Sequence record: MH791409.1
DNA: 64,000 nucleotides
Direction: 5' to 3' (one strand)
From: Escherichia phage EcWhh-1
Shown: piece after piece, positions 55,401-58,614 of the stretch
How positions within the stretch are numbered: the stretch's first letter is position 1
How the letters are laid out: each line of letters begins with the position of its first letter
Position numbers and translations under genes: made by a program
Notes under the pieces: model-generated
What the model was told of the DNA's origin: nothing
Seen by the model: the letters and a program-made list of their open reading frames with translations, nothing else
The model's database searches: none

Positions 55401-56780
55401 TCATAGAGCCTCCAAATCTTTAACATACTCAGTTACAACATCAGTGGTTTTCCAGTATTGATGCTCTTCTTTCTTAGCCTTGGCTTCCAAAGCCAGTTTC
55501 TTAGCTTCATCGGACGTGATATGGAAAATATTCATTGCTACGAGTTTATCAGCGTATTCGCCGTAGACTTTATTACCGGCTAATTCTTCGGTTAAAACCT
55601 TACGGGTCTTACCTTGGATAACCACTACACCATCAATAACATCTTTGATAAATGTGGCTTTAGCCAATGCCAGTTTGAAAGCTTCTTCGGTTTCGATGAT
55701 TTTACCATCAATACGTTTTTGTACAAAGGTCTTACGGACCTCAACGAAATCACGAATCAATTCAACTACATCTTCGTAAACCTTAAGTTTACCTTTCTCA
55801 TTAATGACTGTCAGGTTTTGCGAACGACGTTCGATTAACCCGAAGTCCTTCATGATTTTCTCATGCTTCTTATTTTCTTCAGTAGGCAATTCGTATTCTT
55901 TACGAATTTTAACCTTGAAGCCGAAACCATTCTCGTCACAGTCATCATCATACGTGATGTACCCTTTGTCTTCTAAAGGGTCCAACACCTTAGCCACATA
56001 CGTTTCACGGTCGTATTTGTACGGGATTTCTATGATATGCATTTGGGTTCGAGATGTGAACTTATACGTGCCTCGTAGTTCATAACTACCCGGTTCAATC
56101 TCAACCACATCACCACGGAATTCCGGATAAGCCACCTTAGGCTTGGTTACGCGTTTTTCTTGAAGAACCTGCAATACAGCTTTCTTAACAGAATCAAAAC
56201 TATGAGGAAGAATATTAGTTGCATAACCAGTTGCAATACCGGAAATACCATTAAGAAGAACAGTAGGAATAATAGGCAGATAAAAAGCTGGTGGCTTATG
56301 TTCGACATCCGCATGAACCGGAGCATATTCTGTATCCTTATAAACTTTGGCAAAGTTACTTCCGATACGAGCAAAAATATAACGAGATGCCGCTGCTTTT
56401 TGAACCAAACGAGAACCAAAGTTACCTTGGCCATCCAACAGTGGGAAGTTGTTGTTCCAAGTGTTAGCCATCAGAGCACCTGCTTCTTGAGCAGAGCCTT
56501 CACCATGGTGATATCCAAGGTCGGCTACACCACCTGCAATAGAAGCCAGTTTGTGGAATTTTTCTTTATTACCACGAGCCATATCAAGACAACGAGCAAC
56601 TACAAAACGTTGCACTGGTTTAAAGCCGTCAATCATATTTGGAATGGCGCGGTTTTCGACAGTATACATTGCGTAAGCCAGCGCTTCATTGTCGATAATG
56701 CTTTTTAAGTCACGACGAGTAAAAGCATCATCGTAAACATCTAAGGATTGTTTAAAAAGGGTATCAATTACATCAGCCAT
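55401..56780 (-). CDS. 52: DNA topoisomerase II medium subunit gp52
   Basis: 459 aa; matches T4 gp52 (KSIIDNEALAYAMYTVENRAIPNMIDGFKPVQRF). Confidence 0.92.
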   Translation of the reverse strand: MADVIDTLFKQSLDVYDDAFTRRDLKSIIDNEALAYAMYTVENRAIPNMIDGFKPVQRFVVARCLDMARGNKEKFHKLASIAGGVADLGYHHGEGSAQEAGALMANTWNNNFPLLDGQGNFGSRLVQKAAASRYIFARIGSNFAKVYKDTEYAPVHADVEHKPPAFYLPIIPTVLLNGISGIATGYATNILPHSFDSVKKAVLQVLQEKRVTKPKVAYPEFRGDVVEIEPGSYELRGTYKFTSRTQMHIIEIPYKYDRETYVAKVLDPLEDKGYITYDDDCDENGFGFKVKIRKEYELPTEENKKHEKIMKDFGLIERRSQNLTVINEKGKLKVYEDVVELIRDFVEVRKTFVQKRIDGKIIETEEAFKLALAKATFIKDVIDGVVVIQGKTRKVLTEELAGNKVYGEYADKLVAMNIFHITSDEAKKLALEAKAKKEEHQYWKTTDVVTEYVKDLEAL

Positions 56781-56784
56781 AATT

Positions 56785-56925
56785 TTACCATACTAGTGAA
56801 TGAATAACCATAATAACATCGGAAATAAAAAGCACAACTTGGATAAGACCGAATATTACTCCATAATACAGTGCTACCAATAAAGCAGCAAGGGCCACCG
56901 AGTAGCCCAAGATTTTCTTAATCAT
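56785..56925 (-). CDS. small hydrophobic membrane peptide (52.1 position)
   Basis: 46-aa ORF ([27 protein letters not shown]...) not in the track; stop 4 nt before gene 52. Confidence 0.45.
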   Translation of the reverse strand: MIKKILGYSVALAALLVALYYGVIFGLIQVVLFISDVIMVIHSLVW

Positions 56926-57079
56926 TTTTAATCATCTTAAGTAAACCGACAAAAGTAGAAAGAACCCAGCCAATAAACAGAAAACTTAAGAATACCGGAC
57001 CAGGGGTCCACACACCTAAAAAGAAGCAAACCGAACAGACTATAGCCGTAATAAGTTCAATAAAAACTATGATAATCAT
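56918..57079 (-). CDS. small hydrophobic membrane peptide Y (ac-like position)
   Basis: 53-aa ORF (MIIIVFIELITAIVCSVCFFLGVW...); start/stop overlap neighbours. Confidence 0.45.
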   Translation of the reverse strand: MIIIVFIELITAIVCSVCFFLGVWTPGPVFLSFLFIGWVLSTFVGLLKMIKND

Positions 57080-57089
57080 ATTTTCCTCA

Positions 57090-57228
57090 TTAGCGTCCGA
57101 AGACGCCTTTAGTTTTAAGATTGTTACGATAGAACTGCATCACATGTTCGTTATGGGAATTACTCCGTAATACAGTGTTACTAATAAAGAAGAAAGGGCT
57201 ACCGAGTAACCCAAGATTTCTTAATCAT
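57090..57228 (-). pseudogene. chimeric remnant: 5-prime part of a 52.1-like gene fused out of frame to a 3-prime stp copy lacking a start codon
   Basis: 57161-57228 is about 88% identical to 56861-56926; 57090-57165 encodes ...[21 protein letters not shown] with CGG in place of ATG; junction at shared GAGTAAT. Confidence 0.55.
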
Positions 57229-57374
57229 TTTTTGGTAAAGGCCTGTAGAATCAGAACAAATGCCAATATGAATTGTGGAATGGCCTGAGAAATGACCGAA
57301 GTTTCACCCGTAGTAATAGTCCAAATACCTAGATAAGTCCAAATACCCGCAGCAAAACCTTGTAAAATATTCAT
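57225..57374 (-). CDS. small hydrophobic membrane peptide X (ac-like position)
   Basis: 49-aa ORF (MNILQGFAAGIWTYLGIWTITTGE...) with GAGG RBS overlapping the stp stop. Confidence 0.45.
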   Translation of the reverse strand: MNILQGFAAGIWTYLGIWTITTGETSVISQAIPQFILAFVLILQAFTKK

Positions 57375-57381
57375 ATTTTCC

Positions 57382-57462
57382 TCAAGGGCGTCCGAAGACA
57401 CCAGTTAATTTCAGATTATGACGGTGCCATTGCATCACATGTTCGTTATGGAAATTACTCAT
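57382..57462 (-). CDS. stp: Stp peptide (activator of host PrrC anticodon nuclease in T4)
   Basis: 26-aa [29 protein letters not shown] vs T4 Stp [26 protein letters not shown] (recalled); ATG overlaps ndd stop. Confidence 0.75.
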
Positions 57463-57911
57463 TAGTAAGCCTGCAGAACGAATTTGAAGTTATCGGCCAA
57501 CATACGGTTCATTTCTTCCAGTGTCTGAAGGTCTGAACTATGATTGCGAGTGAAAGCCATTGCAATTTGACCTTTACCAAAGCCTGTAGTCAGAGGTTTC
57601 ATTTTAGAAGCTGGCACATAAAGAACTTCATACACCACACCATTCACTGCCATAGTGCGAGCTGATTGAGAACGTTTCTTACGGATGTTAGCCACAATAC
57701 CATCAAGACCTTGAGCTGAACGTTGGTTACCGACATAAAAGCGAGCGGCTACGACACGAGAATCTGCTTCACCTTTAACAAAGAAGTAGAAGCCTGGCTG
57801 AGCTGAGATTTCTTTAGAAGGCTTACCATTTTGGTATTCGCCATTCTTAACATAAGCAACAGTAGTAGCACCAGCAGACAGAACGTTACCGCGAGTCATA
57901 TAAGTATTCAT
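57462..57911 (-). CDS. ndd: nucleoid disruption protein Ndd (synteny)
   Basis: 149 aa (T4 Ndd 151 aa), immediately upstream of stp. Confidence 0.65.
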
Positions 57912-57946
57912 ATCAATTTCCTCAGTAGATTAATGTTTTGTTATCC

Positions 57947-57989
57947 AGTCAACGAGAACCATTATAACATGATTCTCGAGGTTGTAAAC
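57947..57989 (-). promoter_or_regulatory. early promoter/stem-loop cassette upstream of ndd
   Basis: CGAGAACC...GATTCTCG stem around the -10; GTTTAC -35. Confidence 0.55.
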
Positions 57990-58333
57990 TATTTTTGTAG
58001 CTGTTCTAAAATAAATCCGCTCGTATAAAAGGACGCATTATATACCTTATTCAGTGGGTTCAAAGCGCGTCCATAGGTATCACGTAATTCTTTGATAACA
58101 TTTTCGTAACTCACATAGTAAGCACTACGATAGTCAGGGTCCATGCTCATACGGAATTTGATGAATCGATAAAACCCTGTATCCGGGTCTTGAACGAAAA
58201 CGAAATCCGCGCTTGCCATAGTTTTTGAATCTAACCCAGTAACCAGTTCTTGATTAAAGGCTGCCAATGCCTCTTTAAGACTGAGTTGCTCAAAGAACAT
58301 AACCTTAGCATTACCAAAAAATACTTTAGACAT
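57989..58333 (-). CDS. hypothetical protein (ndd.x position)
   Basis: 114-aa ORF. Confidence 0.5.
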   Translation of the reverse strand: MSKVFFGNAKVMFFEQLSLKEALAAFNQELVTGLDSKTMASADFVFVQDPDTGFYRFIKFRMSMDPDYRSAYYVSYENVIKELRDTYGRALNPLNKVYNASFYTSGFILEQLQK

Positions 58334-58347
58334 AATAATTTCCTCAA

Positions 58348-58614
58348 TTATTCAGAGTCGACTTCTTCTGATAATTCCATCAGTTCATCAACCGTGAAAC
58401 ACTCGGTATTATTTTCAATAGCAAAACGCTTTTGATAAAAAGGATAATCCAAACAGTTTTCAGTACGAATGGGACGCTCACTATTATCCATCAAAGGAGA
58501 AATGCGAATCAATTGTTGGCCGTTACCTAATACAAATTTTTCACCAACTGCGACATCTTTAAAAAGTTTCATAATATTTTCCTCAGAAGTTAAAGAATAC
58601 ACGTACATGGTCAA
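58348..58614 (-). CDS. hypothetical protein (ndd.x position)
   Basis: 88-aa ORF. Confidence 0.5.
   Translation of the reverse strand: MTMYVYSLTSEENIMKLFKDVAVGEKFVLGNGQQLIRISPLMDNSERPIRTENCLDYPFYQKRFAIENNTECFTVDELMELSEEVDSE

Follow-up and report, generated by a model that had tools for sequence, protein, structure and literature searches.

Gene order of the stp-52 interval

The window analyzed here is a stretch of 64,000 nt of DNA from Escherichia phage EcWhh-1 (MH791409.1), and the features described below all lie on its minus strand between and including ndd and gene 52. The left flank is ndd (57462..57911), a called open reading frame of 149 aa of the Dhakavirus type, the same gene of phage IME281 matching PF06591; the right flank is gene 52 (55401..56780), encoding the medium subunit of topoisomerase II, as given by the ORF call and annotation. 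Reading away from ndd, the interval contains an intact stp encoding a 26-aa Stp (stp1; 57382..57462), the ATG of which overlaps the ndd stop codon; a gene for a hydrophobic peptide of 49 aa, designated X (57225..57374); a frameshifted remnant of about the first 21 codons of a 52.1 gene (52.1'; 57166..57228), recognized by sequence reading, alignment, and a repeat finder; a junction microhomology, GAGTAAT (57159..57165), that is common to stp nt 3 to 9 and 52.1 nt 64 to 70; a start-less stp of the Dhakavirus/T4 type consisting of codons 2 to 25 and the stop codon ('stp2, here stp2'; 57090..57164); a gene for a hydrophobic peptide of 53 aa, designated Y (56918..57079); and an intact 52.1 gene of 46 aa (56785..56925). 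The order ndd, stp1, X, 52.1'::'stp2, Y, 52.1, gene 52 on the minus strand had been proposed in a first-pass annotation made from the sequence alone, and it proved to be near base-exact. The intact 52.1 product belongs to DUF7396, its 46-aa ORF matching the PF24129 profile from end to end at 78 bits (cutoff, 27). Hydropathy analysis showed that X, Y, and the 52.1 product are strongly hydrophobic and that Stp is hydrophilic. No promoter-like site was found within 57090-57230, the sole strong site lying upstream of ndd (57988-57961); a search of Rfam returned no match across 56000-58500 at an E value of ≤1, and no homing-endonuclease family occurred among the Pfam annotations of IME281 genes within about 1.5 kb.

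Public annotation of this interval is incomplete. The gene corresponding to stp1 (57462-57382) is missing from the IME281 record (NC_055740.1), Y (57079-56918) is missing from the JS98 record (NC_010105.1), and the scar itself is annotated in no record. The flanks of the interval also vary among relatives. Some carry an optional gene for a 57-aa hydrophobic protein, labeled p57 here (phrog_5941), between ndd and stp, including JS98 (L002 335-508), NC-G (L004 335-508), and dhaeg (L008 401-574); the window has no such gene between 57462 and ndd. The stop codon of p57 sits within codons 2 and 3 of stp (TATGAGTAA), and its presence is independent of the subgroups of scar carriers described below, which implies ongoing exchange at the left flank. 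On the other side, the 5' end of gene 52 in JS98 (L002 1183 onward) differs from that in the window (56780 region), the products being 442 aa and 459 aa, respectively, with the first ~20 residues unaligned; the scar segment thus has different flanks in different carriers.

The intact stp and its allele

The product of stp1 matched PF08133 at 55.3 bits (cutoff, 25) and phrog_6763 with an E value of 2e-19, both being families of Stp, the anticodon nuclease activator. The first-pass annotation had described this intact copy as diverged. Comparison with other phages does not bear that out, since the allele is the one carried by Gaprivervirus: it is 100% identical at the amino acid level and 96.3% identical at the nucleotide level to stp of VR20, VR25, and VR26 and 100% identical in amino acid sequence to that of UPEC01, with DNA identity to the Gapriverviruses of 95 to 96%. 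The T4-type allele is far more common, 482 of the 590 records matching stp lying at 80 to 90% identity to stp1. Relative to T4 Stp, the stp1 product has the substitutions F12W, Y13H, N15H, T19L, K20T, and Q26P; its residues 12, 13, and 15 differ from T4, yet the allele is conserved across the whole genus Gaprivervirus. Within the carrier clade, stp1 has accumulated two nonsynonymous and five synonymous changes. Judged by these comparisons, stp1 is an imported allele and did not diverge in situ.

The part of PMC3014915 that summarizes the work of Penner et al. places the function of Stp in its N-proximal 18 residues and reports that inactivating mutations cluster at residues 4 to 14; according to the same part of that source, the C-terminal 8 residues are reportedly dispensable. 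F12W and Y13H of stp1 both fall within the cluster at residues 4 to 14, as do F4S and V9A, two changes found in stp2'. The Dhakavirus clade described here has swapped its Stp for a Gaprivervirus allele with other amino acids at positions 12, 13, and 15, which belong to the functional region, and this allele replacement is a testable lead on specificity for type Ic restriction (EcoprrI and EcoR124I) and PrrC. A link between the locus and host defense through PrrC/EcoprrI is plausible.

The X and Y cassettes

X lies directly after stp1, between stp and 52.1, and at first appeared to be a peptide without known relatives. That view can be corrected: X matched phrog_2501 over residues 1 to 49 with an E value of 3.9e-20, and T4 Ac, the acridine resistance protein, matched the same family with an E value of 2.2e-25, so that X is a homolog of T4 Ac. 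Its amino acid sequence is 100% identical in all carriers of the scar, with no nonsynonymous and four synonymous nucleotide changes, from which we conclude that X is under purifying selection. Y belongs to a different family (phrog_9347; E value of 1.1e-25) and is the resident of the ac slot in Dhakavirus, being the sole gene in that slot in JS10, dhabil, and KIT01. The first-pass annotation had regarded X and Y as unrelated, which agrees with their assignment to separate families and with the finding that their cores do not align.

The Ac and Y families are not strict alternatives, as they are adjacent without any scar in other Tevenvirinae contigs. One contig has the order p57-Ac-Y-52.1 (L028), and in another Y is followed by a candidate Ac-like peptide of 43 aa and then by 52.1 (L029). 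Some genera have the two families as alternatives and others have both together, and the locus in the window shows one route by which they can be united in one genome. The same slot is rearranged in another way in phage vB_EcoM_005 (L024 1401-1613), where a deletion of ~93 nt joins Y to the 3' end of 52.1 and creates an ORF of 70 aa.

The 52.1 remnant and the junction

The 52.1' remnant begins with an ATG at 57228 that is coupled to the stop codon of X (ATGA) and reads AAGAAATC where 52.1 has AAGAAAATC, a run of four A residues having been reduced to three (57219-57217). As the first-pass annotation had noted, the missing A brings an early stop codon into frame (57201-57199), and the remnant encodes only nine codons, MIKKSWVTR (57228-57199). 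With only ~21 codons left and a frameshift, 52.1' does not qualify as a gp52.1/DUF7396 gene. Its best match is the 52.1 gene of JS10, with 66 of 72 positions identical, compared with 59 to 61 of 72 for Gaprivervirus 52.1. The remnant holds three private substitutions and reads TACGG, as do T4 and UPEC01, where Dhakavirus reads TATGG. A terminator-like hairpin is found within 52.1' (57212-57196), and the identical hairpin occurs in intact 52.1; a terminator or structured RNA at this position was considered and rejected, because 45% of simulated randomly mutated ancestors folded at least as well.

The stp2' copy that follows has CGG in place of the ATG and is therefore a remnant and not a gene. 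It was expected to be T4-like and is, being 96% identical to T4 Stp over residues 2 to 25, and it is one base off the standard Dhakavirus stp of JS10 and dhabil, the difference being F4S (TCC, 57158-57156). In the window, the TGA stop codon of X shares its reading frame with stp2' (57227-57090), and no other stop codon intervenes. This arrangement probably arose by chance, at odds of roughly 1 in 10, and read-through of the X stop into stp2' was set aside on that ground and since the frame is lost in the NC-G group of carriers.

The two halves of the fusion meet exactly on the heptamer GAGTAAT (57165-57159), which is where the crossover had been placed from inspection of the sequence. A 7-mer shared by chance between genes of 81 nt and 141 nt is expected ~0.6 times and would be unremarkable on its own; what matters is the position of the junction, which coincides exactly with the shared heptamer. 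GAGTAAT is missing from Gaprivervirus 52.1. The repeat finder recovered two pairs of direct repeats around the junction. The stp pair consists of 57367-57467 and 57072-57172 (101 nt, 78% identity, spacing of 295 nt), and the pair formed by the 5' parts of 52.1 consists of 57159-57219 and 56855-56915 (61 nt, 89% identity), with an adjoining exact match of 16 nt and a spacing of 303 to 304 nt. The value for the second pair agrees with the ~88% estimated at first, and pairwise alignments, which the first-pass annotation had proposed as one check, gave the same result; the identity of both repeat pairs is far beyond chance.

Distribution of the junction among related phages

A comparison with related T-even genomes, likewise proposed at the outset, showed that the junction recurs. 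The interval is 99.9% identical to that of Dhakavirus IME281, and the same junction is present in five independently sequenced Dhakaviruses (IME281, JS98, UP19, Esco_phi_B-01, and NC-G) and in three Logan assemblies of publicly deposited reads. About 30 other Dhakaviruses, including JS10, dhabil, KIT01, WG01, MX01, and Bp7, align to the interval with a gap of ~295 nt and carry the single unit ndd-stp-Y-52.1-52, which is the norm for the genus. A search of the literature for a prior description of the scar in JS98 found nothing specific.

The lesion that shortens the A run is common to all carriers, which fall into two groups. Members of group I (the window, IME281, JS98, Esco_phi_B-01, and ERR11523140) have the full 52.1' fragment and F4S. 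Those of group II (NC-G, ERR3179013, and ERR3179108) have a deletion of 31 nt flanked by ACT, which brings stp2' into the reading frame of the 52.1 ATG and yields a fusion ORF of 33 to 35 aa that begins MIKKSWATVLR-SNFHNEH... (L004 735-842 in NC-G, L020 1647-1748, and L021 1060-1161). The fusion looks like a re-activation, yet stp2' is still decaying in this group, with V9A and N15I in NC-G and T19I and a premature stop codon in the ERR contigs.

A scar of the same kind was found in two Gapriverviruses, TH40 (L073 1244-1353, MT446411.1) and EAWsc9 (L071 1244-1353, PQ341120.1), which have the order stp1-Y'-(52.1'::'stp1)-Ac-52.1. Like the window, these phages have the architecture stp-cassette-52.1'::'stp-cassette-52.1 with a Y-family and an Ac-family gene stacked, but the Y-family gene comes first, the A4 run is intact, both copies of stp are of the stp1 allele, and the junction lies elsewhere, joining 52.1 nt ~43 to 65 to stp nt ~27 to 29 near ATGG. 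Both parental types can be recognized. MN01 and pEC-M719-6WT.2, in which stp1 is followed by Ac, share 99.2% identity with the 'stp-Ac part, and VR7, VR20, VR25, VR26, and SP18 represent the other parent, with a single unit that has a Y-family gene in the ac slot. A third form was detected in a metagenomic contig (ENA ERZ27235398 k119_14484; L014 744-783) with the order stp-Y'-ATGATTAAGAAATCCTATATTTAATAATGAGGAAAATATG-X'-52.1, where the X-like gene is 73% identical to X in amino acid sequence; its scar consists of 14 nt of the 5' end of 52.1' and, beyond it, the stop codon and the ribosome-binding region of a T4-type stp. The 14-nt piece likewise has AAGAAATC, through either common descent with the scar of the window or convergence. 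Given the independent scar of TH40 and EAWsc9, with its different junction, and the third form in the metagenomic contig, the fusion of 52.1' to 'stp between two different cassettes has arisen at least twice. Among the 590 records matching stp, the matching places outnumbered the records by 13. In a separate Gaprivervirus record of 141 kb (DCP80; PQ671644.1), stp matches lie at three places, and the one examined in its context (L072) is a normal single unit.

The recurrence raises a wider reading, in which T-even phages would repeatedly use the stp-ac-52.1 slot as a hotspot for stacking alternative membrane-peptide cassettes through 52.1::stp joins of at least two independent origins and in which the 31-nt deletion would have re-activated the scar of the NC-G sublineage, so that a second Stp with an N-terminal extension would be translated. 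Taken as a whole we consider this reading unlikely; if it were true, one phage would have two anti-restriction/PrrC-triggering Stp alleles. As to why joins between 52.1 and stp are the ones that are seen, we infer that joints located at a greater distance, within ndd or gene 52, would give long repeats that T4-type recombination would quickly lose, so that the versions with short repeats alone would persist.

Origin of the interval

The interval is very probably the fossil of a recombination event that stacked two cassettes from different phage variants. The first-pass annotation had suggested illegitimate recombination between variants carrying alternative cassettes as opposed to a simple duplication, and this proposal is supported by the different families of X and Y, the different alleles of the two stp copies, the existence of the recipient type, and the recurrence of the junction. 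The recipient would have been a Dhakavirus with the order ndd-stp-Y-52.1-52, and a T-even variant infecting the same cell would have supplied stp1-X(Ac)-52.1'. On the right side, donor 52.1, past codon 21, would have been joined to recipient stp, past its ATG, inside GAGTAAT. On the left side, homologous recombination would have taken place either at the 3' end of ndd or within the initial 39 nt of stp, a stretch that does not vary among the alleles. The window has an ndd 3' end almost identical to that of dhabil and JS10; since it is of the Dhakavirus type, the left exchange can be placed beyond the final variable position of ndd and no further than codon 12 of stp. An unequal crossover of two genomes and the insertion of a small circular molecule joined at GAGTAAT are topologically equivalent, and either could have produced the arrangement. 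The outcome would have been a phage with one working Stp, the imported one, an Ac-family membrane peptide beside Y, and a dead 52.1'::'stp hybrid, the 52.1' part of which would later have been cut to nine codons by the loss of 1 nt in the A run. The structure presumably owes its stability to the short and diverged flanking repeats (about 75 to 100 nt, 78 to 89% identity).

The recipient type is abundant among sequenced phages, and for the analogous scar in Gaprivervirus both parents have been sampled. A donor configuration for the window, with stp1-X-52.1 as a single unit and an intact 52.1, was not found with the X peptide in IMG/VR, in a search of 5.8 billion proteins, or by tblastn against phage records, and two scans of metagenome DNA, one with the junction and one with the core of X that is conserved, were empty. 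At ≥99% identity, X occurs in carriers of the scar only; its next relatives are a 46-aa protein with 73% amino acid identity on a 931-bp ENA contig and the Ac of Klebsiella Jiaodavirus with 49%. The donor was either mosaic itself or a variant of Dhakavirus, so far unsampled, in which stp1-X was already present, because 52.1' is closest to Dhakavirus 52.1 while holding private substitutions and TACGG and because Gaprivervirus 52.1 is without the heptamer.

The same affinity of 52.1' to Dhakavirus 52.1 would fit a different sequence of events, in which a tandem stp-Y-52.1'::'stp-Y-52.1 formed first within one genome and its first unit was later swapped for stp1-X by homologous exchange in the conserved flanks. 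Homologous swapping of cassettes does occur here, and single units of the Ac type and the Y type coexist in Gaprivervirus. However, this route takes two events instead of the single one that would do, none of the 590 records matching stp held two like units, and the remnant has the TACGG of T4 and UPEC01 and not the TATGG of Dhakavirus. We regard this order of events as improbable.

It is a little less probable still that stp2' remains functional and provides the phage with a second Stp specificity, either through read-through of the X stop codon or through a fusion ORF of the type found in NC-G. In favor of this possibility, the in-frame fusion of 33 to 35 aa in NC-G, ERR3179013, and ERR3179108 is coupled to the X stop codon and matches PF08133, and the version in the ERR contigs retains Stp residues 2 to 18, the C-terminal 8 residues being those reported as dispensable in the part of PMC3014915 cited above. 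The copy in the window, however, is without a start codon and has F4S within the cluster at which, according to that source, mutations inactivate Stp; the fusions have the further changes listed above (V9A and N15I in NC-G, T19I and the premature stop in the ERR contigs); and across the carrier clade stp2' has accumulated five nonsynonymous changes, one of them nonsense, against two that are synonymous. The missing ATG, F4S, and this excess of nonsynonymous changes mark stp2' as a pseudogene.

A tandem duplication in situ followed by divergence of both copies would account for the overall architecture, a direct repetition at intervals of about 300 nt, but it is very improbable, as X and Y fall into different PHROG families with cores that cannot be aligned and each stp copy is 96 to 99% identical to an allele in other phages and 78% identical to its neighbor. 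An assembly artifact or chimeric contig, for which there is nothing to say beyond the general risk at short repeats, can practically be dismissed, since the identical junction occurs in five isolates from different laboratories (JS98 being an EF-series accession) and in three independent read-set assemblies and the carrier copies hold their own lineage-specific point differences.

Comparison with known systems

With stacking by recombination between variants as the preferred explanation, the interval can be set beside its counterpart in T4. The T4 order ndd-stp-ac-52.1-52 resembles the window in gene order, in its tight overlaps (ATGA and AATGATTAA), and in its protein families (PF08133, phrog_2501, and DUF7396). 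Unlike T4, the window has two stacked units, a functional stp of the Gaprivervirus allele, an additional gene of the Y family, and the dead 52.1'::'stp hybrid. Tandem duplications and deletions of the classical kind in T4 arise at short direct repeats, and a remnant seldom survives at the mosaic joints of phages.

The modular shuffling mediated by PeSL in the hyperplastic regions of T4-type phages (Arbiol et al. 2010, PMC2839356; Comeau et al. 2014, PMC4122927) is similar in that small nonessential genes are swapped or added between related T4-type phages at short conserved flanks, and the mini-circle intermediate proposed for it (PMC2839356) would yield exactly the topology of the window. In the window, however, the flanks are coding sequences (stp and 52.1) and the join was made at a microhomology of 7 nt. 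As no promoter/stem-loop cassette is present at the joint, this was not a PeSL event.

Illegitimate exchange by the phage's own recombination system is the generally accepted route by which DNA is added to T4-related genomes (Petrov et al. 2010, PMC2993671). The window resembles the outcome described for that route in that the join lies at a few shared bases, short direct repeats are left behind, and DNA has been added. Compared with illegitimate recombination in general, it is a natural, fixed example in which both junction partners can be identified. The locus shows how T4-like phages shuffle their small accessory genes and involves no new kind of biology. What makes it useful is that the joint can be read: the two genes that were joined, the 7 nt at which they cross over, and the decay that followed are directly legible, and there are independent repeats in another genus. 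Events of this type are already familiar from phage genomics; the novelty lies in an especially legible and recurrent instance, together with the replacement of the Stp allele.
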